Assembly (NCBI GenBank): GCA_011605725.1
Contig: JAAOZP010000012.1
Coordinates: 1 to 64,000 of the forward strand
Direction of reading: 5' to 3'
Length of the DNA: 64,000 nt
DNA from: Nitrososphaerota archaeon
GTDB taxonomy: Archaea; Thermoproteota; EX4484-205; JAAOZP01
The translations under genes and the position numbers were made by a program. The notes below the pieces were generated by a model. It did no database searches, was not told where the DNA came from, and saw only the letters and a list, made by a program, of their open reading frames with translations. This document shows, in pieces, positions 1,195 through 50,114 of this stretch (the stretch's first letter is position 1; every line of letters starts with the position of its first letter).

Positions 1195-2535
1195 TCAGAG
1201 CCCGGTTTCCCTCTTGTAGACTCTCTCGACGAACGAGTCCCTCACAGGCTTGTAAACCTTGTTGAAAAACTTCTGCTGGTCGAGCAGAACATCCTGCGGA
1301 AACTCCTCAAGATACTGTAAAGCCCTTCTCCAGGCTTCCTCATACGGAACCACCTCGTTTATCCTTCTAACTATTTGCTCATCATAATCCCTTGGAGTCT
1401 GTTCAGCATTACCTATCATTAACCACCCGTCTTCCGACAAGTAGGCAGTCTCATTCCCCAGTTGGAAAACGTTTCTCTCCTCAGCCTGCTTAGAAGGCTT
1501 AACAACATCCCTCCGGCCGGAAGGCTTCTTGGCTTCAACCCCTCTTTGCTTAGCCCAAGCGTAGAAGATTGCCCTGTTCAAGCCGAATGACTTGGATTTC
1601 TCGATGTCTCTCGTTAAAAGGAAGCATCGCGCAGCCTGCAGCAGCGCCATAACTTGGAACCTTCCAAGCCTGGGCGTTTCCTCTCCACGGCTCATGCTGC
1701 CCGAAGGCATGGGTGCCACTCTTTTAAAGTATCCTCCGACTGTAGATAAAGCTTTTTCCGCAAGCTCATCCGCCTCTCCTTCTTCAAAATCCATGTAAAC
1801 CGTCCTATGCTTGAAGCTCTCCGGGTTGACCCATGAAAGATCGAAGACGTCAATATCATCCGGTTTGAAGCAGACACACGAATAGTCCAGTTCCCTGTGG
1901 AGAGATAGTGGAAGAGTGAAAACCCTCTTAAGATCCATCTTATTCTCGATCTTTGCGCCTTCAGCTAAACCCGTAAGCTTCGGCTTAACCATCCTAGTGA
2001 CATACTCGACTATTGCGAAGGCAGCGTCCAGAGGATGATGCTTTTTAAAAAGCTCTCTGGAAAAAGCTTCTTCAGAAACATGCACGTGACACCCCCGGCC
2101 GCTCCATTTAAGATATACTGACTTCACAACCCTCTCCCTCTCAAGCTCCTCAACTATCAGCCTGCAAACAGCCAGTGTTTCACGCCACCTTTCAACATCA
2201 TTATCCACGTCCCAAGTCGGGGTGGAACGGTAAATGTTGGAAACATCCTCCAGGTCCTCGCTCACCGAGAGCCTAACGTATTTATTGGCTGAACCGTAGA
2301 AAGACCTAGGTTTAGCAAACCAGAATCCTCTCAGCAGCCTATTTACATCACTCGAATCCTTGAATCTAAGCGGCGACCCGTCTCTACCATACCTTATGAA
2401 AACCCTTCTCTCTAAGCCGCCTTCAACAGCTATCCACCTGTCTCTCCCATAGTTGAAGAGCTCTCCTGCAACCCTTGGGTGAGAGTAATACTCGAAAACC
2501 CAATCCAGGTCTCTCTGGCGACTTGGCTTCGCCAT
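1195..2535 (-). CDS. Archaeo-eukaryotic primase (AEP) superfamily protein fused to a C-terminal conserved domain of unknown function
   Basis: WDVDND (DxD motif I), WSGRGCHVH (motif II), MDLKRVFTLPLSLH (motif III); extra C-terminal domain RFQVMALLQAAR...GLNRAIFYAWAK. Confidence 0.6.
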   Translation of the reverse strand: MAKPSRQRDLDWVFEYYSHPRVAGELFNYGRDRWIAVEGGLERRVFIRYGRDGSPLRFKDSSDVNRLLRGFWFAKPRSFYGSANKYVRLSVSEDLEDVSNIYRSTPTWDVDNDVERWRETLAVCRLIVEELERERVVKSVYLKWSGRGCHVHVSEEAFSRELFKKHHPLDAAFAIVEYVTRMVKPKLTGLAEGAKIENKMDLKRVFTLPLSLHRELDYSCVCFKPDDIDVFDLSWVNPESFKHRTVYMDFEEGEADELAEKALSTVGGYFKRVAPMPSGSMSRGEETPRLGRFQVMALLQAARCFLLTRDIEKSKSFGLNRAIFYAWAKQRGVEAKKPSGRRDVVKPSKQAEERNVFQLGNETAYLSEDGWLMIGNAEQTPRDYDEQIVRRINEVVPYEEAWRRALQYLEEFPQDVLLDQQKFFNKVYKPVRDSFVERVYKRETGL

Positions 2536-2640
2536 GCTACGTTTTCCCCGCTGATTTAAAAATAAACTTTTCCAGCCTACTGGAGCAACCGGTGTTTATA
2601 AAAAGTTTAATAATAACTGCGCTGAAAAACCGTTGAAAAA

Positions 2641-3819
2641 TTGTCTGTTGAGCAAGAAGGTTTGGAAAAGAAGGAGGCGCCGGCTTCAACCCGTTTCTTA
2701 AGACAAATGCTGCTGATAATCATAAACCCGAGGGAAGCGTTTATCCAAGTTAAGGATTCACCCAGCTTTATCCCCATGCTGATTATCCCACCGATCCTAG
2801 TGGCATTAACTTTCACTCAATACTATGTTTTCTACAGGATGAAAATGAATATTCCGGCAGCATTCTACACGGAACAGATCGACTCCTTCATAAACAGCCT
2901 TATTCAGTTAAGGCTGATGCAATACATAGTTATAGTGTTGTTCAGCATACTTCTGATGCTGCTTATTTTCTGGAGCGGGAGGTTTTTAGGAGGATACGGA
3001 GACTTTAAGCAGGGTGTTTCCATAACAGGCTACGCGCATCTTCCGAATTTCCTTGGCCTCGTGATAATCATCCTGCTATTCCTGTTTATACCAGCGGTTC
3101 AGACAAGCGTCCTTACGCTTGTCGGCTACCCCATAAGGGGGCAGCCGAAGGATAACATAGTTATAGGCTTAAGAGACTACATAGGGGAAGATTCCAATTT
3201 GACTATGAGAATGATGAGTTACTACAGCGTTCCGTTGAACGCTACGATAAGCAGCGGCGGAGCTATAATTGGCGCCACTAGCATAGTTGAAGGAGAAATC
3301 AATATTACTTACGCTGTAACTACCTCGACAGGGATTAATAAGACTGTGAAAAAAATCTGGTTGAACGGAACAAGCCTAAACTATAACACTCCGTTAACAA
3401 TCAGAAAAATTTTCGACAGCGGAGAATATTGCGTGAAGAACTGTGTCAAGAGTTTCACCGTCGACCTAACCCTGTTTCTGAACAATACGTATGTCTCGCC
3501 GGTTCAAGAAAACATGAGCATACCGTACATCCTGGTTTTTAACGTTTACGAGGCGGGTGTGAAAACCAGAACCTACGAGGTTTCCTCAAGCTTCTACACT
3601 GAAGTGGCGCAATGTCCAGATCCAAAGCCTTTAGTCAACCTTATAAACGAGAAGATAAGCCCGATAGTTCAGGTTCTCATCATAGCTGTATCAATATGGC
3701 AGTTTCTCCTTTTAGCCGTAGCGCTCAGGATTATTCACGAATTCCAATGGGTTAAAGTTATACTTTTCGTAGGGGCTTATGCTGCAGCTAAGTATTTGCT
3801 TCTCGGCTTCACAATATGA
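2641..3819 (+). CDS. Yip1-domain membrane protein with a large inserted extracytoplasmic domain
   Basis: IIINPREAF N-terminal motif, multiple TM helices, central beta-rich region with many N-x-S/T sequons. Confidence 0.6.
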   Translation: MSVEQEGLEKKEAPASTRFLRQMLLIIINPREAFIQVKDSPSFIPMLIIPPILVALTFTQYYVFYRMKMNIPAAFYTEQIDSFINSLIQLRLMQYIVIVLFSILLMLLIFWSGRFLGGYGDFKQGVSITGYAHLPNFLGLVIIILLFLFIPAVQTSVLTLVGYPIRGQPKDNIVIGLRDYIGEDSNLTMRMMSYYSVPLNATISSGGAIIGATSIVEGEINITYAVTTSTGINKTVKKIWLNGTSLNYNTPLTIRKIFDSGEYCVKNCVKSFTVDLTLFLNNTYVSPVQENMSIPYILVFNVYEAGVKTRTYEVSSSFYTEVAQCPDPKPLVNLINEKISPIVQVLIIAVSIWQFLLLAVALRIIHEFQWVKVILFVGAYAAAKYLLLGFTI

Positions 3820-8665: not shown

Positions 8666-9810
8666 TTCAACACGCTTTTCTGAAAAACAGGCTCCGCAAG
8701 GTTGTCTAGACGGGATACTACTAGACCCATAAGCTCATCTAAGCCTTTACGCAGCTTCGCCGACACCACGCAGTAAGGCAGGTCGTGAATAAGAGGATAA
8801 GCCCTGTTAATCTTCAACTCCACCTCTTGACTGCCTGATGCAAGGTCACACTTATTGAAAACCATCAGTATCCTCTCATCCTTAACCTTGAGGCTTCTAA
8901 GAATATCCAGGCAAGTCTTAATCCTTAAAAGCAGCAAGTCTGAAGGATCGCTCACATCCACAGTAAGCATTACAAGGTCTGAAAGCCTTATGTCGTCAAG
9001 CGTTATGCTGAAGTAAGCGATCAGCCGTGGGTCAAGATCCATTACGAACCCTATAGTGTCAACCAGAAAAACCTCGCGCCCCCTATGGGGAAGCAGGTAG
9101 TACTTACTGGTCAGCGTGGTGAAAGGCCTTGGACTAACGGGTTTATCCAAGTTCGTGAGAGCGTTGAAAAGCGTTGTTTTACCCGCATTATAATACCCAG
9201 TTATGCAAACCGTAGGTATGCCTGTTTCCCTCCTTCTTTTAAGCTGTAAAAGTCTTTCAAGCCTCCTCTTCTCAATCTCCGCTTGAATCAGCGACTTTCT
9301 CTTCAAAAGGCTTGCAACAGTCTCGTGATAAGCATATTCTCCGAGGCTCCTTGGACCAGGATGCTCCCTACCAGTCTTAAACCTTATAGACGCCAGCAGC
9401 TTCTGGTAGGGTATTTCTTTCAAGAGCCTGGCAAGCCTTATCTGAAGCTTAGAAAGCCTGTCTGAAGACGAAATTTCGAAAATCTTAAGCGTCAAGTCAT
9501 ATCTGTCCAACACCTCTACGCCCAGGATTCTTTCAAGATTATACTTTTGCTTACTTGTCAACACGTTGTAGAAGATAACGGTTTCAACACTGTTTTCAGC
9601 AACCTGTTGCTTCACCTCCTCTAGCTTGCCTCTACCAAGCATGAAAGCAACATTCTCCTTAGGGTTCACCTGTATGGTTGAACCGGAGACACTGTATCCG
9701 GCTGCAATACTCAGCTCCCTAAGCTCGCCAAGCCTAATCCTGTATAGGTGGTGATCATGAGGATCAGTCTTAACCATGCAGAGCCAGGCTCTCAAACCAC
9801 TGTTTTTCAA
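8662..9810 (-). CDS. hflX: GTPase HflX
   Basis: GRGKLEE, LKIFE...KLQIRLA, G1 GYYNAGKT, FTTL, DTIGF, NKCD. Confidence 0.9.
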   Translation of the reverse strand: MKNSGLRAWLCMVKTDPHDHHLYRIRLGELRELSIAAGYSVSGSTIQVNPKENVAFMLGRGKLEEVKQQVAENSVETVIFYNVLTSKQKYNLERILGVEVLDRYDLTLKIFEISSSDRLSKLQIRLARLLKEIPYQKLLASIRFKTGREHPGPRSLGEYAYHETVASLLKRKSLIQAEIEKRRLERLLQLKRRRETGIPTVCITGYYNAGKTTLFNALTNLDKPVSPRPFTTLTSKYYLLPHRGREVFLVDTIGFVMDLDPRLIAYFSITLDDIRLSDLVMLTVDVSDPSDLLLLRIKTCLDILRSLKVKDERILMVFNKCDLASGSQEVELKINRAYPLIHDLPYCVVSAKLRKGLDELMGLVVSRLDNLAEPVFQKSVLN

Positions 9811-9896: not shown

Positions 9897-12077
9897 TCAG
9901 TATTCGATCAGCAACGCCTCGTAGAGCATGAGCCTCGGCAACACGAACCGTAAAAACCCTTTTTCAAAGGACCATTCTAGATTTTTTTCGAGAGTAAGAG
10001 CCTTAACTGTTCGAGGCTCCTCTTCAAACCTTATCTTGAAAGAAATATTCTCCACTGGAAAGACCCTTTTGAAAGGCCTTCTAAGAGCATACGTGAAGTT
10101 AACCAGGTGAAGCATACGGTAGTTCCTCCCCCTGAAAACAGTTATTTCAACAGTCTCAGGAGCATCTGTCTCAAAGTCGCACACATTCCCACCGGCCCAT
10201 TTGACAGAGTTTTCAATTATCTTAAGATAGTCTAGGAAACCGTTGTTCCAGTATTGCCCTGCAAAAGTACATGGGAAGTAAACAGCCCTGCCTCTTCCAA
10301 ACTCTGAAGCTACGATTGTTGGAAAACCCGTTTCACGAGTAAGATCCCCATACCTGGCTGGAGCAGGCTCCAACTGTAGGCAGACAGGCAATCCTTGAGA
10401 AACAGTGGTTTGAAGCACGAATTCAGGGCTTGGAAGTATTCTTAGGCCTTCAGGAGTGGTTTTAAACTGGGGTACTCCCGAAACCAGCTCATGATCCTTC
10501 TTAATAACCATGTAGTCCCATCTTAAAGGCCCCATAACCCTGTCACCCTTCGAGACTCCGAAGACCTCGGAGAGCGCCGGGGAATCCCTGCGGCAACCCG
10601 TCTCGTCAAATATGGAAGTCTTGTATGTTGCAACCAGCCCGCCTCCTGATTCGACGAAAAACCTTACTGCATCAGCCTGTCCACTACTCATGCAGGCCAC
10701 GTTAGGCAGAATAACCAGACTATACTTTTTCAAATCCTCACTGTTAACGTTTAAATCACTTATCAGGTCGAAAGGAACATGGAGGCGGAGCAGCGCCTCG
10801 TAGAAGCCCCTCGCCTCCTCAACAGTTTTCTTCTCGCTTTCAAACTTCCATGCAGCTATTCTCTGAGCCTCGAGAAAATCGCCTGCCTGAACCCCTATTG
10901 TAACAGGCTTCTCCATCTCAACCCTTGCCTGAGCCTCTTCAGACGCTGCTTGAGGAGGAACCTCGAAGAAGAAGTCGCCTGTCCTTCTCGACCAGACTAC
11001 CGCTACCCTAGCGTCAGACTCCGCCTCCTGGTAGTAATTCTCATACTTCCTCGCCGTTTCGAAGAATCTTTTACCCTCTTCAGTCGCCTCCCTAGCGAAA
11101 CCATGGTCTTCAAACATGTCGGCACCGTTCGCCAACCCTTGAACCTTGCCCAACAAGTATTCAACATCAGGTATCCTCTGCCTGAACCATGGTTGATGCG
11201 ACGCCGCTAGGAAAAGGCAGAAAGGCTTCTCCCTCTTGATCGAGTTGGCAAGCTTTGTCGTCCAGCCCTGGAACCAGATTGGAACACTGTTCGGCAAAGT
11301 ATAGTACTGGTAGCTCTCCATCCCTATTATGCTCTGACCCTCAAACGAGTCCTCAGCACTTAAAGCGAAGCTCCAGGAGGGCCATACTTGGCCACTGTTA
11401 TTACTGTAAAGAAGGGTTTCAAACCCTTTCTCCCTAAGCTTCCTCTGCCCGTCTTTCAGAAACCTTGCGATAGAATTATACCTGAAGATTACGAACCTCC
11501 TCCACGCTGGGTCTCTCCAGTCCTCTCTAGCCGGAATCGGAAAACCATGCTCCTGCTCAAACATGCTCCTGCAATGCTTACAATAGCATGCGCCAGGATA
11601 GTAAGCAGGCCCGTCTAGAAAGATCACGTCTACACCTCTCTCAGCAATCTCCAGAATCAGTTTAAACATTCTATCCCTGTACGGCGTGTTAACGCACATT
11701 GAGAAACCGTGTCCATACAACGTGTTGATCGGCTTCCCGTCTGATTTCACCTGAGCCCAATCCTTATGCTCAGAGTAAAACTCGTCACCATAATAGTGAA
11801 CGTTAAGATATGTTCTTGTTCGAAGACCTTTCCGGTGCGCAGCCTCAACCTGTTCCCGAAGCAGGTCCCTACCACCAGCTCCCTCCCATTTAGGCAGTAC
11901 TTCACTATCATAGAGCGCGAACTCCCTGTTAATATCCCCCTTGTAGGAGACTACTTCAAGAAGGTTGCAGTTTCTCCGAGAAGCCTCGTTCACAACCCTC
12001 TCAATATTCTCCCGGCTGAAGTCTCCGTAATCCCCCCAGGTAAGCCATATGAAGCGTTTCCTCCACCATTCACCCAT
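9897..12077 (-). CDS. Glycoside hydrolase-like protein (GHL6/GH42-like TIM barrel plus beta-galactosidase trimerisation domain)
   Basis: DLLREQVEAAHRKGLR, IFLDG...CYCKHC, LVILPNVACMS...FVESGGGLVAT. Confidence 0.75.
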   Translation of the reverse strand: MGEWWRKRFIWLTWGDYGDFSRENIERVVNEASRRNCNLLEVVSYKGDINREFALYDSEVLPKWEGAGGRDLLREQVEAAHRKGLRTRTYLNVHYYGDEFYSEHKDWAQVKSDGKPINTLYGHGFSMCVNTPYRDRMFKLILEIAERGVDVIFLDGPAYYPGACYCKHCRSMFEQEHGFPIPAREDWRDPAWRRFVIFRYNSIARFLKDGQRKLREKGFETLLYSNNSGQVWPSWSFALSAEDSFEGQSIIGMESYQYYTLPNSVPIWFQGWTTKLANSIKREKPFCLFLAASHQPWFRQRIPDVEYLLGKVQGLANGADMFEDHGFAREATEEGKRFFETARKYENYYQEAESDARVAVVWSRRTGDFFFEVPPQAASEEAQARVEMEKPVTIGVQAGDFLEAQRIAAWKFESEKKTVEEARGFYEALLRLHVPFDLISDLNVNSEDLKKYSLVILPNVACMSSGQADAVRFFVESGGGLVATYKTSIFDETGCRRDSPALSEVFGVSKGDRVMGPLRWDYMVIKKDHELVSGVPQFKTTPEGLRILPSPEFVLQTTVSQGLPVCLQLEPAPARYGDLTRETGFPTIVASEFGRGRAVYFPCTFAGQYWNNGFLDYLKIIENSVKWAGGNVCDFETDAPETVEITVFRGRNYRMLHLVNFTYALRRPFKRVFPVENISFKIRFEEEPRTVKALTLEKNLEWSFEKGFLRFVLPRLMLYEALLIEY

Positions 12078-12197
12078 AGGACAGTAGACGTAAGGATGGG
12101 AATAAAGCTTTCCGGTTGAAAAAACTTCGTCCTAGGCTTTCAACACAAGCCAGCGGAAACCCTACCTGTTTAACACATAGTTCTTCAACAGGCTTAA

Positions 12198-12998
12198 TCA
12201 CAGGCGGTTCAGAATCTCGGTGAAGTCCTCACCGCTCAGCCTCCACCCCATGCTTCCAACATTCTCCTCCACATGCTCTATCCTCGAAGCCTTCGGAATA
12301 GGCACAACAGGCTCGATGCAGATCAGCCAGTTTAAAGCAACCTGAATAGGAGTCTTACCGTATTTCTCCCCGATTCTCCTCAGCAGAGTGTTTCCGGAAA
12401 CAGCTCCCTTCTCTATAGGAGTATAAGCCATGTAAAGCATTCCCTCCCTCTGGGCATACGGGATCACGTCGACATAGTCCTTCCTGTAGACTGGGCTGAA
12501 CCTGTTTTGAACAGCAGCGATATCCGTTCTCCTTAAGCATGCTCTAGCCTCCTCAATGCTTTTAACGTTGAAATTGCTTAATCCAATATGCCTAACCATA
12601 CCCTTGTTGACAAGCTCCTCCATCGCCCGCATCGTCTCGCATATCGGGAAGCTTGAGGGCCAGTGGAGAAGGTAAAGATCTATGAATGTTCCAAGCCTAT
12701 CCATGCTTCTCCTAGCAGCCTTCAAAACACCCTCATAGCTCGCGTTAGTCGGCCAAACCTTAGTCACTATGAACAACTCGTCCCTGTCGAAGCCTTTTAT
12801 CGCCCTGCCGACAAGCTCCTCAGCCCTGCCGTTAGCATACATTTCAGCAGTGTCAATCATAGTTGCGCCGAGCTCAATCCCTCGTTTAAGCGCCGCTATT
12901 GAAGCATCATCCATAGACCGGTCTTCCCCCATTCTCCATGTTCCAAGCCCAAGGCTTGAAACGCTTCGCCCAAGCTTCTTGAAAAACTTAGTGTCCAT
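12198..12998 (-). CDS. Aldo/keto reductase
   Basis: LGLGTW, IDTAEMY, DLYLLHWP, IGLSNF, PIPKAS. Confidence 0.93.
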   Translation of the reverse strand: MDTKFFKKLGRSVSSLGLGTWRMGEDRSMDDASIAALKRGIELGATMIDTAEMYANGRAEELVGRAIKGFDRDELFIVTKVWPTNASYEGVLKAARRSMDRLGTFIDLYLLHWPSSFPICETMRAMEELVNKGMVRHIGLSNFNVKSIEEARACLRRTDIAAVQNRFSPVYRKDYVDVIPYAQREGMLYMAYTPIEKGAVSGNTLLRRIGEKYGKTPIQVALNWLICIEPVVPIPKASRIEHVEENVGSMGWRLSGEDFTEILNRL

Positions 12999-43372: not shown

Positions 43373-44428
43373 TTGAAAAGCATGCAGGCTGATTACGACC
43401 CTTTAAAAATATTTTTAGAAAAGTATGAAAAAGACAGAAGGATCTTCTCCTTCGAAGCTAAAGATCTTTCAGAGTGGAAGTCTTGGCGCCTAGGTTTCAG
43501 AAGGAAGCTTACCGAGCTTATCGGACTTGATTTCTTCGAAAGCGCAGAGATCTCGCCTGAAACAGTGGATAAGAAGCACTATCCCGGCTACATTAGGGAA
43601 AAAGTGATTCTGAAAAGCGACCCCTATACCTTAATACCGGTATACGTGCTGGTTCCGGAAAAGTGTGAAAACACCCTGCCCGCCGTACTGGCTATGCATG
43701 GACATGGTTACGGAAAGGATGACCTAGTAGGCATTTGGGAGGATGGGACTGACCGTGTAAACCCCGTATCGAGAGGCTACCAGAAGGATTTCGCGTTGGA
43801 ACTCGTTAAACGAGGCCTAATCGTGATAGTCCCGGAGCAAAGCGGTTTTGGAGAACGCAGAACCAAGGAGGACATTGCAAAGGGTAGTGAGCAGAGCTCG
43901 TGTAAAATGCTTTCCCTATGGGCTTTGATGATGGGAACTACAACCATGGGTCGGAGAGTATGGGATGCTATCAGGGTGTTAGACTATGTTCTCACCAGGA
44001 AGGATGTTGATCATTCAAGAATAGGCATGATGGGAATATCTGGAGGCGGGACTACAACGCTTTTCACATCAGCTTTGGACGACAGGATTAGGGTCGTCGT
44101 GATAAGCGGCTACCTGAACACTTTCAGGAGCAGCATACTGGCAGTTGACCATTGCATAGACAACTATGTACCTAGTATACTCAGATACTGCGAGATGTAC
44201 GATGTGGCTGCTCTAATCGCGCCGAGGCCACTTTTGGTTGAAAGCGGCTCTAAAGACCCTATTTTCCCAATAGAAGCCACGAGATATGCTTGTGAGAAAG
44301 TACGTAGGGCCTATGCCTTGCTGAAAGCCGAGGATCGGTTTGACACGGACTTCTTCGAGGGAAGGCATGAGATAAGTGGAAGGAAATCATACGAATTCAT
44401 GGCTAAATGGCTGAAAGAAATTAACTAA
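43373..44428 (+). CDS. Alpha/beta hydrolase (dienelactone hydrolase/acetyl esterase-like)
   Basis: HGHG, GISGGG nucleophile elbow, LIAPRPLL, DPIFP, GRHE. Confidence 0.88.
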   Translation: MKSMQADYDPLKIFLEKYEKDRRIFSFEAKDLSEWKSWRLGFRRKLTELIGLDFFESAEISPETVDKKHYPGYIREKVILKSDPYTLIPVYVLVPEKCENTLPAVLAMHGHGYGKDDLVGIWEDGTDRVNPVSRGYQKDFALELVKRGLIVIVPEQSGFGERRTKEDIAKGSEQSSCKMLSLWALMMGTTTMGRRVWDAIRVLDYVLTRKDVDHSRIGMMGISGGGTTTLFTSALDDRIRVVVISGYLNTFRSSILAVDHCIDNYVPSILRYCEMYDVAALIAPRPLLVESGSKDPIFPIEATRYACEKVRRAYALLKAEDRFDTDFFEGRHEISGRKSYEFMAKWLKEIN

Positions 44429-44459
44429 TATTCCTAGAAACAGAAAGTTACCGCTTTTG

Positions 44460-44479
44460 GATAAAAATACATTTTTATC
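44460..44479. promoter_or_regulatory. Palindromic operator upstream of the RiPP precursor
   Basis: GATAAAAAT-AC-ATTTTTATC perfect inverted repeat. Confidence 0.5.
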
Positions 44480-44537
44480 AACTAAAAATTAAAAAATACT
44501 TATCTGAAAAATTTCTAATAGAGGTGGAAAATAAAAG

Positions 44538-44660
44538 ATGAAGGTAATTATTCTCGAAAAAGGAAGCAAGGCATGGTATAGGTATACGGCTTGTAACACT
44601 GTAGGATGCGGCCAGAACTGCACCCCTGTCGGATGCGGGAGCTTTATCTCTCCCTATTGA
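44538..44660 (+). CDS. Putative RiPP precursor peptide, 40 aa: MKVIILEKGSKAWYRYTACNTVGCGQNCTPVGCGSFISPY
   Basis: Not in the ORF track; GAGGTGG RBS at 44521; repeated CxxVGCG core; ends 23 bp upstream of the radical SAM gene. Confidence 0.8.
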   Translation: MKVIILEKGSKAWYRYTACNTVGCGQNCTPVGCGSFISPY

Positions 44661-44683
44661 GACTTTAATTCAGAAAAGAGATA

Positions 44684-45586
44684 ATGTCCTCTATTGAGAC
44701 TATCGGTCAAGAAAGGAGATTAAGATTATCTGGATATTGCCTCATCATTCCCTACGATAAAGAAACTTACATACTTTTTCATACATTGAAAGGCGGGATT
44801 GCACTTATTGATGTAGAAGCCAAAAATTTTTTGGAATCCCACAGTAAATCAGGCTTTGCTGCTAGTGAAATCAAAGAATCGCAAGTAAGAGAAGCGGTTC
44901 TCAATTTACTGGAATCAGGGTTTCTTATAGATGAAGAAGTCGATGAATCTGCATTATATAGGTATTTTTTAAACAGGAATCGCTTTGATCATTTTCATGC
45001 AGCCTTCTTGATTTTGACTACCTATGCTTGTAATTTAGCCTGTAAGTACTGTTATCAAGGCTTACAAAAAAGAACCGACATCATGACGCTACATATAGCA
45101 GAAACAGTTAGTAAGTGGATATGCAAGTTGTTAGACTTTAGGAATTCCCGGTCAATCGGTATAATTTTTTATGGAGGTGAACCGTTGTTAAATATAGCAG
45201 CATTAAAATCCGTTAGTAATAATTTATTAAGCTGGAGTAGGCGTACAGGCCGTGAATTATTTACAGGACTTATAACAAATGGAGTATTGCTAACAAGACA
45301 ACTTGCAAATGAATTAGTAGATTCATATGGCTTAAGGCAAGTTCATGTTACGTTTGACGGTAACAAACTTTATCATGATTTAAGGAGATGTTTCCCAAAT
45401 GGAAGCGGCACTTTTGACATCATCTTATCCAACTTACTAAGCTACGTAGATTCCGTGGCTACTATAACTGTGAGAGTAAACTTAGATAAGCATAATGTTG
45501 GAACAGTACCTAAACTATTGGATGTCTTTCAGAGTTACGGTCTTGAAAAGAGCGAGATACGCCTTAGATATAATGGGTTTAAATGA
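44684..45586 (+). pseudogene. Peptide-modifying radical SAM enzyme (RRE-like N-terminus), lacking the expected C-terminal SPASM domain
   Basis: CNLACKYC, FYGGEPLL, ITNGVLL, VTFDG...HDLRR, VRVNLD; sequence switches to ABC ATPase near 45540. Confidence 0.8.
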
Positions 45587-46170
45587 ATTCGAAACTAGTT
45601 ATCCTTCGACACTGTCTTCAGGATATAGACAAAGAACAGCTTTAGCCAGAGGGCTAGCTGTAGACTCCCCAATCTTCTTAGATGAGCCTACGATGAACCT
45701 TGACCCAATTTCAGCAGAGGGTTTCAGAGAGTTCGTGAAGAGCACACTTAGTTTAAGGTTGAGACGCACCATAGTGTGGACGACGCATGTTTTAAGTGAA
45801 GCTGAAAAGCTTGGAGATAGAATTGGAATAATGAAAAAAGGGAAATTTATCATTTGCGATTCTCTGAGAAACTTGATAAAAGGTGCGAATCTGAACACGT
45901 TCAAATTAACGATCTCTGGTATAAATGTGGACGCGTTAGAACAGAAGATCTCTCAATTTAAGAAAAGCTTCGATAAGGGCATTACGGTTCGTCTGCTAAG
46001 CTATGATAACGGAATTACTGAGATAAAAGTGATAGGAGCAGTGGAACACGAGCAAGTAGAAAAAAAACATAAGCTCATGCCTGGACGGCTCTCAAAGGAT
46101 TTTAGAAATCAATGAAGTGAAGCCCTCGTTAGAAGAAGCATTCGTTTTTTATGCTGGTGAATTTCAATGA
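45540..46170 (+). pseudogene. ABC exporter ATP-binding subunit, N-terminal half missing, frameshift in an A8 run (46060-46067)
   Basis: LSSGYRQR, IFLDEPT and TTH present, no Walker A; removing one A gives ...KPSLEEAF...* overlapping the permease ATG. Confidence 0.8.
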
Positions 46171-47081
46171 GCGAACAATATTATCGTAAGTTGTTACGAA
46201 AACCGAGGCTAAGTATAAGGGATTACATTCCAGTATTCTCCGTTTTCGTAAAGCGCTCAGCAAAACAAATAAGTTTCTATAAGACGAGTTTTGTTTTCAA
46301 TATTGTTGGAGTAATTACGGGCGTGCTTTCTTACTATTTCGTGAAATTGACACTGAATCCTTCTGAAATCATAAGCAATTTGGCGCCGTATGGAGGGGAC
46401 TTTATGGCATTTCTTATAGTTGGCATCGCCTTCCAACAATATATAGATCTTGCGCTACACGGGTATTATGAAGGCCTTGCAAGTGCATATTGGGGCTCGA
46501 CCTTAGAACAGTACCTTGTTTCACCGTTGAATCCATTGGTTTTTTCTATAGCACAAGTAATTTGGAGTTTCATCATCAGGAGTCTAAACTTTTTGTTATA
46601 CCTCATAATTGGCATTGCATTGTTTAAAGTGAAGATATTTCCCCTTAGTATTATACCTGTAATTTTGATATTTTGCATTTCAACCATTGCTGTATCTGGA
46701 CTCGGCCTTCTGTCGGCAAGCACTTTTATGCTAATGAACGCAAAGGGTTGGGAGGACCCGATTAGGTGGGCAATCACTACGTTAGAGGGATTAGTCATAG
46801 GAACCTATTATACCCCGGAAATACTTCCGATTCCTTTACAAGTCCTCGGTCTTCTGCTCCCGCAAACTTACGCGTTAGATGCATTAAGACGTTTGCTCAT
46901 AGTGGGTGCTACTTCTGAGAAAGTATTACTTGCACACTCCTTCATCCCAGTAGATCCAATTATAGGTGATATTCTTATCCTACTTGCGATTTCTATTATT
47001 TATGTTCCCCTCGGATACTACGTATTTAACAGAGGAATAAGGTACGCCCAGAAAATTGGTAATTTAACAAGACGGGTCTAG
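46167..47081 (+). CDS. ABC-2 type exporter permease
   Basis: About 6 TM helices, STLEQYLVSP, GTYYTPEILP, LPQTYALDALR. Confidence 0.88.
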   Translation: MSEQYYRKLLRKPRLSIRDYIPVFSVFVKRSAKQISFYKTSFVFNIVGVITGVLSYYFVKLTLNPSEIISNLAPYGGDFMAFLIVGIAFQQYIDLALHGYYEGLASAYWGSTLEQYLVSPLNPLVFSIAQVIWSFIIRSLNFLLYLIIGIALFKVKIFPLSIIPVILIFCISTIAVSGLGLLSASTFMLMNAKGWEDPIRWAITTLEGLVIGTYYTPEILPIPLQVLGLLLPQTYALDALRRLLIVGATSEKVLLAHSFIPVDPIIGDILILLAISIIYVPLGYYVFNRGIRYAQKIGNLTRRV

Positions 47082-47396
47082 GACTTTGATTTATCCGATT
47101 TAGCGCACGCTATGACCCAGTTAAATTTTTTAGATTCTATAAAGGAGGTGGAGAAGTTAACACAGTTCAAAATCTTCATCCAACGTTAAGGACCTTTCTC
47201 ATCCATTGATTGAACGAAATTTATGAGCCAATCCCTAATAGCGCGTGCTTCTATTTGAGACACTGAAAATGAAATATAAGGAAACCAATTTATGTAGTAT
47301 TAGTCATAAGTAAAGGTACGATTATATGTTTCTCTAAAAGAGGACAAAGATAACCGATTAGGCAAGCCAAGTACCCATCTAAGCTAGGATGAATTT

Positions 47397-48716
47397 TTAC
47401 TCTAACAACCACTTCCATAGCGGTAAGCATTTTACTATTTTATTGTCAACCCTAATCTCATCCTCATAATCCCATGTTATTATCAACAGATCTTTACACC
47501 TTAGCTCTTCACCCGCCTTTATCAAACTTTTGATTTCCCTTTTTTCAATCTCATCCTTGCCAGAAGCATAAGTAACTTGAATCAATTTTTTAACGTTCAT
47601 GCCTTCTTTTAAAACAAAATCGACTTCTCTCTGTTGGTAATCTTTCCAATAATAAACTTCTAGCTCTCTGGACCATAGGCTTCTCCTTCTTAGCAGCTCA
47701 ATCGCAACAACATTTTCCATAATTTTGCCTAAATTTTCGATGAATCTAAAACCCATTAGAGTAAAGAAAGAAATATCGGTCAAATAGTTTTTCTTTGGAG
47801 ACCTTTCTTGTTCCTTAACGCTAAAGGAAAATCTATCGATGAAATTTGTCATTCTTGCAATCTGAAAATATTTGGTAAATCTTTCAGTAGTCTTCAGGGG
47901 TGTTTCTATCTCTCTACTTATACCTCTGATGCTTATTAAGGAAGATGGGTTTGAAATCAAGAATCTTCCTACTGCTCTCAAGTATTCGTCCGCTCTAATC
48001 CTGAATCTCTTTTCTATGTCTTTTATAACTATCGTTTCCCAATAATTTTCAACTATCCTTCTTCTTTTTTCCTCGTTTTTTTCTAAAACGATTTCGGGAA
48101 ATCCTCCAAACTTTAAGTATGATGTCATCCACTCCTTAAATAAAGCTGGTTTTAAAATAATATCTCCTTTGGAGAATTCAATTCCATTAAACAAAAGAAA
48201 TTCCTCAAAGGACAGTGGAAAAATTTCAAAACTTATACATCTTCCAGCCAAAATGCTTTCAAATTCTTCAGCCATTAGCCTTGCACTACTTCCGGAGACG
48301 ATAATTCTTGCCTCGTTTTTTTCATGTAGACTTCTAACGAATTTTTCCCAAAAACTAACTTCTTGAATTTCATCTAGGATTATCAGCGGCTTTCCTCTGA
48401 AATTAATGAATTCCCTATAAGCTTCATAAATTTTGATCAAAAAGTCTTTGTCTAATTTTGCGGGGAATTTCATTTCCTCAAAATTTACATATAGGACTCC
48501 CTCGGCACTTTTAGCTTCGCTAACTTCTTTAGCAACCTGTCTCAAGATGTAAGATTTTCCGCTCCTTCTTATGCCAAAAACCGATATTATTTTGTTTACC
48601 CCATTTAAGTATGAGGTTATTTTTTGAATATACGTCCCTCTTTTCGTACCTATTTCTGCCCCCTCTCCCCAAAAGTTCCAGCCTGAAAGTACCTCCATGA
48701 TTTGCCCTTTCTTCAT
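47397..48716 (-). CDS. Archaeal ATP-binding protein (AAA_14 plus DUF4143-type)
   Basis: GIRRSGKS, ILDEIQ, VSGSSA, GGFPE, MENVV, EVDFV..IQV. Confidence 0.9.
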   Translation of the reverse strand: MKKGQIMEVLSGWNFWGEGAEIGTKRGTYIQKITSYLNGVNKIISVFGIRRSGKSYILRQVAKEVSEAKSAEGVLYVNFEEMKFPAKLDKDFLIKIYEAYREFINFRGKPLIILDEIQEVSFWEKFVRSLHEKNEARIIVSGSSARLMAEEFESILAGRCISFEIFPLSFEEFLLFNGIEFSKGDIILKPALFKEWMTSYLKFGGFPEIVLEKNEEKRRRIVENYWETIVIKDIEKRFRIRADEYLRAVGRFLISNPSSLISIRGISREIETPLKTTERFTKYFQIARMTNFIDRFSFSVKEQERSPKKNYLTDISFFTLMGFRFIENLGKIMENVVAIELLRRRSLWSRELEVYYWKDYQQREVDFVLKEGMNVKKLIQVTYASGKDEIEKREIKSLIKAGEELRCKDLLIITWDYEDEIRVDNKIVKCLPLWKWLLE

Positions 48717-48727
48717 CTTTTCTTAAC

Positions 48728-48763
48728 TATGTGGCACAATATTTAAACTTTTTGTGTCACATA
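48728..48763. promoter_or_regulatory. Inverted repeat flanking the TATA box of the ATPase gene
   Basis: TATGTGGCACAA-tatttaaacttt-TTGTGTCACATA, 12-bp arms with 1 mismatch. Confidence 0.6.
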
Positions 48764-48818
48764 AAGGCTTAAAAGGTACGCTCCTTAACAAAAAAAGGTT
48801 AATGTATAGCGTGTGCTT

Positions 48819-48873
48819 GGCATACCTCAGCAAAGGAAAAGCATGAAGCCGGCTTCAGCCGTGGGAGTGTCAA
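48819..48873 (+). mobile_element. Right-end remnant of an IS200/IS605 (tnpB-type) element
   Basis: GAAGCCGGCTTCAGCCGTGGGAGTGTCAA resembles IS605/IS1341 right ends; the intact paralogue has TTAC at the equivalent site. Confidence 0.6.
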
Positions 48874-49115
48874 AAGTCCTCGGTCTCCTGCTCCCGCAAG
48901 CTTACGCGTTAGATGCATCGAGGCGTTTGCTCATAGCGGGCTCCACTTCCCAGAAGGTATTACCTATGCGATCCCTTATTCCAGTAGACCCAATTATAGG
49001 TGATGTCGTTGTCCTACTCGCGATTTCCGTCGTTTATGTTCCCCTCGGGTACTATGCATTTCGCAGTGGAATAAGGTATGCGCAAAGAATTGGCAATTTA
49101 ACAAGATGGGTTTAG
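48874..49115 (+). pseudogene. 3' fragment of a second ABC permease copy
   Basis: Closely similar to 46840-47081 (VLGLLLPQxYALDA...IGNLTRxV). Confidence 0.85.
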
Positions 49116-49319
49116 AATTCTGATTTGTTCACTTAACAAATAATACAAAATCGTATGTCAGTCTTGGTGCGTGTCTAATTTATTAGAAGTGCATCTTAGT
49201 TCTACCAGCCTTTTTCTGTAAAGGCTCCAGCTCCTGATGTGTTATTTTGACAATATGCGCTTGACACCACCTATCCATAAGAGTTAAATAGTTACACATT
49301 TCCAACTAACGCGAAACAG

Positions 49320-50114
49320 ATGAAAGTATGGATAATGACGGATCTTGAGGGGGTTGCAGGGGTCTTCAGCTTCGAAGAACATGCAAGCCCTAAGGGTAGG
49401 TGGTACGATCTTTCTAGGAAACTCTTGACTCAAGAGGTGAATGCTGCTATTGAGGGCGCGCTGGAACAGGGGGCTAAGGAAGTGCTCGTCGTCGACGGTC
49501 ACGGATATGGCGCGGTAAACATAGAGGAGCTTAATCCTGAGGCTAAGCTTCTCTCGGGTAGGCCACTCCTAATTCCATGGGGTTTGGAGAAAGGGTTTGA
49601 AGCAGCCTTTATGATAGGGCAGCATGCCATGGCGGGTGTGGAGAAGGCGCACCTGAGCCATACTGAGAGCCATACTGCTATTCAAAACGTTTGGATAAAC
49701 GGGGTTAAAGCCGGAGAGATAGCGATAGTTGCTGCAGTAGCAGGGTATTTCGACGTACCACTGGTTTTAGTCACAGGCGATAAGGCTGCATGTCTCGAGG
49801 CGGAGTCTCTAATACCTGGGTTGGAAACCGTGGGTGTAAAAGAAGGGTTAAGCCACGGGGCGGCAGTAAGTGTGACGCCGACTAAGGCTAGGATAATGAT
49901 TAAAAACGGTGCTAAGAATGCTCTTGCAAAAGCGAGCAGCATACTTCCCTATAGAGTGAAAAAGCCGGTTGAGCTCGTAGTCGAGTTTACTGAGGAGAGC
50001 AAGAGTTCTGCTGAAGTACTGTCTAGAAGACCAGGTGTGAAAAGAATCGATACTAGAACAATAAAAATCGAGGAGAATGATCTGCTTGAAGCCCTTAGAA
50101 GATGGTGGATGTAA
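49320..50114 (+). CDS. D-aminopeptidase, M55 (DppA) family
   Basis: MTDLEGVAG, VVDGHG, IGQHAMAG, LSHT, VTGD. Confidence 0.9.
   Translation: MKVWIMTDLEGVAGVFSFEEHASPKGRWYDLSRKLLTQEVNAAIEGALEQGAKEVLVVDGHGYGAVNIEELNPEAKLLSGRPLLIPWGLEKGFEAAFMIGQHAMAGVEKAHLSHTESHTAIQNVWINGVKAGEIAIVAAVAGYFDVPLVLVTGDKAACLEAESLIPGLETVGVKEGLSHGAAVSVTPTKARIMIKNGAKNALAKASSILPYRVKKPVELVVEFTEESKSSAEVLSRRPGVKRIDTRTIKIEENDLLEALRRWWM

Follow-up and report, generated by a model that had tools for sequence, protein, structure and literature searches.

Genes, lesions and setting of the operon

The window analysed here is a stretch of 64,000 nucleotides (nt) from contig JAAOZP010000012.1 of a Nitrososphaerota archaeon (assembly GCA_011605725.1), and our subject is a putative gene cluster at positions 44460 to 47081 for a ribosomally made and post-translationally modified peptide (RiPP). 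The initial annotation, made from the DNA letters, had described an unannotated archaeal locus with a 40-amino-acid (aa) precursor peptide carrying CxxVGCG repeats, a radical S-adenosylmethionine (rSAM) enzyme, and ATP-binding cassette (ABC) exporter genes. We found the following features at this locus.

44461..44480, no strand: palindrome of 9+9 nt with a 2-nt spacer, 5' of the precursor gene; probably not functional
44524..44530, plus strand: Shine-Dalgarno-like GAGGTGG, 7 nt 5' of the ATG
44538..44660, plus strand: precursor peptide gene, 40 aa, with a leader of ~18 aa and a core with four invariant Cys (Cx4Cx3Cx4C)
44684..45586, plus strand: truncated maturase with an N-terminal RiPP recognition element (RRE) and an rSAM domain, 300 aa; homologous residues 1-289 end at 45551; SPASM missing
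45547..45551, no strand: deletion junction with AAAGA microhomology; 976 bp of locus L012 (8860-9835) missing
45547..46170, plus strand: ABC ATPase remnant (open reading frame [ORF] as called, 45495-46115); ~142 N-terminal residues, including Walker A, lost
46167..47081, plus strand: ABC-2 type permease, intact, 304 aa; weak Pfam ABC2_membrane match, with the orthologue in locus L013 above the cut-off

A scan of JGI metagenomes with intact maturases gave six further loci (L012 to L017), which together with the window make up seven loci of a narrow family. Maturase identity is 99% for L012, 74 to 75% for L013 and L014, and 57 to 58% for L015, L016, and L017. The intact operon order is precursor, RRE-rSAM-SPASM maturase, ABC ATPase, and ABC-2 permease, and L013 and L016 each have the full set of four intact genes in this same order, with stops and starts that overlap or abut. 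Among 401 sampled genomes of the phylum, the narrow family occurs in the window genome only, and a scan of genome contigs with the maturase alignment gave no relative.

When the window was compared by blastn to L012, which lies on a 438-kb metagenome contig, the two sequences were 99.3% identical up to position 45551 and 98.6% identical from position 45547. Since both ends of the missing 976 bp carry AAAGA, the loss has the appearance of a microhomology-mediated deletion, and it took the SPASM half of the maturase together with the Walker A half of the ATPase. Up to residue 289 the remaining rSAM stump is 98% identical to the 471-aa P0001 (intact maturase homologues are 465 to 471 aa long), while the last 11 codons of its ORF are out-of-frame ATPase DNA. 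The ORF matches Pfam Radical_SAM and Fer4_12 but covers only positions 2-273 of 444 in the CefB profile. Thus, the rSAM gene with an N-terminal extension of about 100 aa was correctly described with respect to the extension, as a CX3CX2C motif is found at residue 116 after a domain of ~105 aa, but what was taken for the enzyme is a 300-aa stump without SPASM.

The ATPase gene is damaged at more than its 5' end. Over residues 143-316 of P0124, which is intact and 350 aa long, the remnant shows 98% identity, and it matches only positions 84-136 of the Pfam ABC_tran profile. It has a 3-bp deletion at 45673, within the Walker B stretch, and an extra A (+1 frameshift) in an A-run at about 46058-46068. 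The extra A costs the gene its last ~35 residues and the ATGA at 46167-46170, in which its original stop overlapped the start codon of the permease. The permease has the same length in L012, L013, and L016. The proposed exporter genes are therefore present in part: ABC-type genes do follow the maturase and the permease is whole, but the ATPase has lost its Walker A/Q-loop half and is frameshifted.

A second maturase of the same type, or a second precursor, was not found in the genome (93% complete). Judged from these lesions, the window operon is a pseudogenised deletion remnant, and its peptide predictably cannot be matured or exported in the window genome, because the deletion removed both the SPASM half of the one protein and the nucleotide-binding half of the other. 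The precursor ORF and the permease are intact and identical, or nearly so, to those of the sister strain, and two other rSAM/SPASM-like genes are present on contigs 13 and 3, as might be expected if the locus were still functional, with the stump or an rSAM enzyme acting in trans maturing the peptide. However, intact neighbouring ORFs are the default expectation after a recent deletion, neither auxiliary-cluster site nor the last strand of the barrel is left in the stump, and the ATPase has lost Walker A and its frame. The matches of the other rSAM genes to the CefB profile are weak (E 7e-17 and 1e-12) and do not extend to the N-terminal RRE part. We consider a working locus in this genome highly improbable.

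The operon lies within a larger insertion.

44429..49319, no strand: AT-rich accessory island between an alpha/beta-hydrolase gene (43373-44428) and an M55 peptidase gene (49320-50114)

This island is 4.9 kb long, with a G+C content of 0.32 to 0.43 compared to 0.43 to 0.53 in its flanks, and of 0.39 overall compared to 0.46 for the window. The AT-richness that had been noted for the locus is thus borne out, with a G+C content of 0.36 to 0.40 over 44500-48500 against the same flanks. In five congeneric species (L040 to L044), the hydrolase and M55 peptidase genes are ~85 to 120 bp apart with nothing between them, which argues that all 4.9 kb were inserted as accessory DNA. With an overall G+C content of 0.35 to 0.36, the L013 and L016 contigs suggest a low-GC donor lineage for the operon. 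Taking these results together, we think it likely that the locus is a decayed four-gene RiPP operon that reached this hot-spring archaeon on an AT-rich island acquired horizontally and was inactivated by the 976-bp deletion, after which further small lesions would have accumulated.

The precursor peptide gene and related leaders

The 40-aa ORF is found at 44538-44660 exactly as the initial annotation had given it. A small conserved ORF of 39 to 45 codons, ending 6 to 25 nt before the maturase start, stands beside the homologous rSAM gene at all seven loci, as would be expected of a precursor; its absence would have refuted the initial reading. The peptide occurs in four distinct versions (window and L012, which are identical; L013 and L014; L015; and L016 and L017), which have in common a leader of the form M-[KR]-x-[IV]-I-L-[ER]-[KR]-G and a core of the form C-[NS]-[TS]-V-G-C-x-x-N-C-[TS]-P-x-G-C. 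The CxxVGCG repeat by which the peptide had been characterised holds in the window lineage only, and the conserved feature elsewhere is Cx4Cx3Cx4C. Similarly, the WYRY segment that had been singled out as a possible site of modification keeps its Y-x-Y pattern, while its Trp and Arg are unconserved.

Between lineages, 47 to 97% of synonymous sites in the precursor gene differ (pS 0.47 to 0.97), compared to 5 to 29% of non-synonymous sites (pN 0.05 to 0.29), a pattern indicating that the precursor is under strong purifying selection. The DNA 5' of the start cannot be aligned between lineages except for an A-rich block and the Shine-Dalgarno-like site; GAGGTGG is present in the window, in agreement with the ribosome-binding site that had been proposed, and GGTG/GAGG-type sites are found at the equivalent place in L013, L015, and L016. 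By these comparisons the small ORF is a real gene, because its orthologues precede maturases, its amino acids are kept despite near-saturated synonymous sites, and its Shine-Dalgarno-like site is kept.

A chance frame in AT-rich DNA, next to an rSAM enzyme that acts on some other substrate (sulfatase-type or cofactor maturation), would be short, unannotated in the record, and without a Pfam or NCBIfam match, and the ORF is all of these. This explanation is nevertheless extremely improbable, given that start, Shine-Dalgarno-like site, and position are kept in four lineages between which the maturases share just 57 to 73% identity, that pN is far below pS, and that a profile of the peptide retrieves the precursor, a single-copy gene in the genome, at E 1e-20; at 76.5 bits the enzyme also scores far below the 349-bit cut-off for anaerobic sulfatase maturases, and the island holds no sulfatase. 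The peptide is absent from ~15 billion called proteins, among which neighbouring genes of the same record are present, and the precursor ORF is therefore unannotated, as had been claimed. Searches of Pfam and NCBIfam with nine precursor variants gave no significant match, the only hits being a sub-threshold TIGR04118 (E 0.014) and a spurious FliZ.

Two other elements near the precursor gene were rejected as candidates. The upstream palindrome reported by the initial annotation is present but unconserved in L013, L015, and L016, and one of its arms has 3 extra A in the sister strain L012; we rejected it as an operator because it is not conserved, being lineage specific and already unequal in its arms in a strain that is 99% identical. 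An antisense ORF at 44489-44623 is open in the closest lineages only, with a frame unconserved in L015 and L016, and we regard it as a by-product.

The predicted leader family, with Cys-containing peptides beginning MKVxxLxKG, is not confined to these loci, and clusters encoding Cys peptides with similar leaders occur elsewhere in the phylum. At L006, L023, L025, and L026, maturases that are ~30 to 38% identical accompany peptides with a similar leader and different Cys cores. One of these loci, L006 (1361-4313), from another species of the same genus, has a maturase 38% identical and the same four-gene order, with a 51-aa precursor that combines the shared leader with a different, three-Cys core. 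In 5.8 billion clusters of called proteins, a profile built from eight leader-sharing peptides had just four matches, of which one, identical to the L025 peptide, is from a metagenome-assembled genome that NCBI names as Desulfurococcaceae. The leader motif thus provides a means to retrieve further clusters in the phylum.

Two further archaeal rSAM/SPASM loci have Cys-rich precursors with unrelated leaders: L010, with a 70-aa precursor (2335-2547, minus strand) whose core repeats C-x-x-x-C-S-P-x-I-C twice, and L009, with a 54-aa precursor (2792-2956, minus strand).

A probable second copy and other island features

Downstream of the permease, the island contains two more elements.

47397..48716, minus strand: AAA_14/DUF4143 ATPase gene (Pfam), present in L012, absent from the L013 and L016 loci, and outside the conserved operon
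48829..49126, plus strand: remnant of a second operon copy, with 25 nt of the maturase-stop/ATPase-start junction at 48829-48853 and the permease's last 253 nt at 48874-49126

The permease piece of the remnant is a direct repeat (D1) that is 81% identical to 46840-47092, and in blastn the remnant aligns to L012 at 9393-9418 (92% of 26 nt) and at 11131-11385. Its G+C content of 0.48 is host-like, that of the intact copy being 0.41. It is probably an earlier copy of the operon that suffered an internal deletion, for which the junction piece, ~20 nt ahead of the permease piece, argues. This suggests that acquisition or duplication of the operon happened twice, with loss on each occasion. The island may thus serve as a case study of an operon that was apparently acquired twice and whose function was lost each time by short deletions; repeated gain and loss of this kind would fit a trait that is accessory and dispensable, as an antagonistic peptide might be. 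For the window genome itself the outcome is an ordinary one, a pseudogenised cluster, and working copies are found in metagenome relatives only.

We also observed GC-palindrome-like motifs (TAGCGCACGCTA and variants) at 47101-47112, 47239-47249, and 48807-48817. They lie just past the point where the permease duplication ends and directly ahead of the remnant, and they bracket the AAA_14/DUF4143 segment. No GC-palindrome patch is present at the 976-bp deletion junction (45547-45551).

The maturase, its predicted chemistry, and known systems

The class of the maturase was assessed on intact homologues, which gave the following NCBIfam scores (for CefB, the score covers profile positions 2-416 of 444).

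CefB (NF038107): 265 to 268 bits, cut-off 600; window stump, 184.6 bits
TIGR04463: 225 to 246 bits, cut-off 525
Geopeptide maturase family: ~205 bits, cut-off 400
Clo7bot: 168 to 190 bits, cut-off 600
PapB: 118 to 122 bits, cut-off 340
SCIFF (TIGR03974): 93 to 103 bits, cut-off 425
anSME (TIGR03942): 76 to 84 bits, cut-off 349

The best families are all RiPP rSAM/SPASM peptide maturases, and all scores are far below the respective cut-offs. By sequence, the best solved structure is CteB (E 1.6e-19). An AlphaFold2 model of the intact maturase, built on 74 relatives with a mean pLDDT of 93.4, also matched CteB (Foldseek E 2e-22; Z 29.4 over residues 15-457), and its second-best structural match was TigE (Z 25.2 over residues 8-464), with the N-terminal RRE domain included in both alignments. 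Although Pfam gave no PqqD or RRE match in the N-terminal 106 aa at E≤10, residues 15-100 of the model align with the N-terminal part that contains the RRE in CteB (from chain residue 1) and in TigE, and on the strength of this predicted fold we assign the N-terminal domain as an RRE of the winged-helix, PqqD-like type. The CX3CX2C motif is at residue 108 to 115 in intact homologues and is invariant in the 74 relatives, and P0001, P0003, and P0004 have CX13GX4C and CX2CX5CX3C plus one further Cys, which makes a seven-Cys SPASM as in CteB. Homologues from P0005 onwards are 34 to 37% identical.

Two other assignments were considered and rejected. A sulfatase-maturase grouping, which would have undercut the initial annotation, is not what we found, since the anSME score is low (76 to 84 bits against 349), the anSME fold aligns to the model from residue 103 only, an RRE is present, and no sulfatase is encoded among the island genes. 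A cyclopropyl-synthase reading was rejected on the missing GYW motif: GYW is the defining motif of the cyclopropyl synthases TigE and TvgB, its Tyr being a ligand of auxiliary cluster I (PMC10878394), and it is absent from P0001, P0003, and P0004 and from 74 of 74 aligned relatives.

The mechanism we propose refers to the intact loci L013/L014, L015, and L016/L017; the maturase is also intact in L012 and in P0001. Thioether cross-linking is the chemistry we infer from homology to CteB, CrpC, and PapB. The leader would dock on the RRE of the maturase, and the rSAM cluster would generate a 5'-deoxyadenosyl radical to abstract a C-H hydrogen from an acceptor residue of the core. Core Cys thiols, which probably bind auxiliary cluster I at its open site as they do in CteB, would then capture the carbon radicals, to give up to four thioether rings, each with a loss of 2 Da. 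If CrpA with its CxxX motifs is a guide, the rings might be small and run from Cys(i) to residue(i+3), for which our guess at the acceptors is Val, Asn, Val/Ile/Thr, and a variable fourth residue. The ABC-2 pump would probably export the product or protect the producer.

At L013, a family-28-type glycosyltransferase gene (11306-12433) overlaps the permease stop, so that a glycosylated product is possible in the L013 lineage only.

Several points weigh against reading the locus as a decayed operon for a thioether-bridged RiPP. Because the maturase is below the cut-off of every named family, function can be transferred at the superfamily level only, and we found no characterised product in the literature for this subfamily or for CefB. 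No protease is encoded in any locus and the leader is unusually short, which leaves leader removal unexplained. In the sister strain L012 (9380-9760), one extra A before the overlapping ATGA abolishes the maturase stop, with the maturase frame continuing into the ATPase gene, and a second frame change follows the Walker A region of the ATPase; both changes, in or at the ATPase, could be real decay or homopolymer assembly errors. Finally, TigE, the second-best structural relative, makes cyclopropyl groups on Ile or Val in repeats, and the core has a conserved Val-Gly.

This last point bears on whether the maturase performs some other chemistry, such as C-C or C-O cross-links on Y-x-Y, epimerisation, or cyclopropylglycine formation on Val, with the four Cys serving as disulfides or as a metal site. 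The full-length fold match to a cyclopropyl synthase that acts on short repeats is consistent with this, as are the conserved V-G in the first core unit and V/I/T-G in the second, the conservation of Y14 and Y16 in the narrow family, and the suggestion that CrpA binds metals (PMC13692751). On the other hand, GYW, which is strict and specific to cyclopropyl synthases (PMC10878394), is absent; the four Cys are the sole invariant core side chains besides N, P, and G; among named families, the closest all mature Cys peptides; and CteB and TIGR04463 are nearer by sequence than TigE. We therefore consider other chemistry unlikely and retain thioether cross-linking as the predicted activity.

A broader proposal is possible but doubtful, and we put it forward tentatively: the leader K-[IV]-[IV]-I-L-E-[KR] would mark a phylum-wide RiPP class, kept across maturases of ~30 to 38% identity and across differing cores (Cx4Cx3Cx4C, Cx3Cx3C, and others), within which the peptide of the narrow family would be compact, with small thioether rings, four in a row, closed onto unactivated Val and Asn residues, a topology undescribed for sacti- and ranthipeptides. 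If true, hot-spring crenarchaea would have yielded their first characterised radical-SAM peptide.

Surveys report many sacti- and ranthipeptide-type clusters in archaea, none of them characterised (PMC12144867), and the claim of a new archaeal family was overstated, since what we found is a new subfamily within a recognised class of archaeal rSAM RiPP clusters (PMC12144867, PMC13692751). The locus represents an undescribed subfamily of archaeal sacti-/ranthipeptide-like RiPP clusters that is decayed in the window genome. Its interest lies in the fact that no radical-SAM modified peptide of known structure comes from Thermoproteota, where surveys count clusters only (PMC12144867), and that the substrate of the sole archaeal enzyme yet studied in this clade is a whole protein (PMC13692751). 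The hot-spring metagenome loci L013/L014, L015, and L016/L017 provide a testable set: the precursor comes in four natural variants, for which the metagenomes carry intact maturases and pumps to match.

Among named systems, the "Cys-every-fifth" enzyme CefB (NF038107) is the best family model, aligned near full length, and two of the three Cys spacings of the core place a Cys at every fifth residue; the score is below the cut-off, however, and the precursor matches no NCBIfam peptide model. CrpC of Methanococcus voltae (TIGR04463) installs ranthionine-type thioethers from Cys to a residue 2 to 3 positions downstream, in motifs such as CAGM, CAVD, and CPLV (PMC13692751). It is likewise an archaeal RRE-rSAM-SPASM enzyme, belongs to the second-best NCBIfam family, and offers a ring pattern that the present core could copy. 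In contrast to the 39- to 45-aa substrates here, CrpA has a mass of 28.8 kDa and comprises a leader of 47 residues and ten repeats, and the three genes of the immediate crp cluster are not reported to include a transporter. PapB, which acts on PapA to make freyrasin, is an rSAM/SPASM thioether synthase that forms small rings on repeated short Cys motifs, but the motifs of PapA are of the CxxxD type, and Asp and Glu are absent from the present core. TigE and TvgB (PDB 8VPO) share the full-length fold, including the RRE, and act on short repeats with a conserved Val or Ile followed by Gly; they differ in having GYW and in substrates that are not Cys-rich. The anSME enzymes lack the RRE that the present maturase has.

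CteB, which acts on CteA in the SCIFF (thermocellin) system of Clostridium thermocellum (PDB 5WGG and 5WHY), has the same architecture of RRE, rSAM barrel, and seven-Cys SPASM, and its substrate is also a short Cys-rich peptide encoded beside the enzyme. The two maturases are ~20% identical, and the precursors differ, with four Cys as Cx4Cx3Cx4C and an unrelated leader of ~18 aa here compared to a six-Cys motif in the SCIFF precursor. The present system further differs from CteB/CteA in its archaeal host and its dedicated ABC-2 pump.

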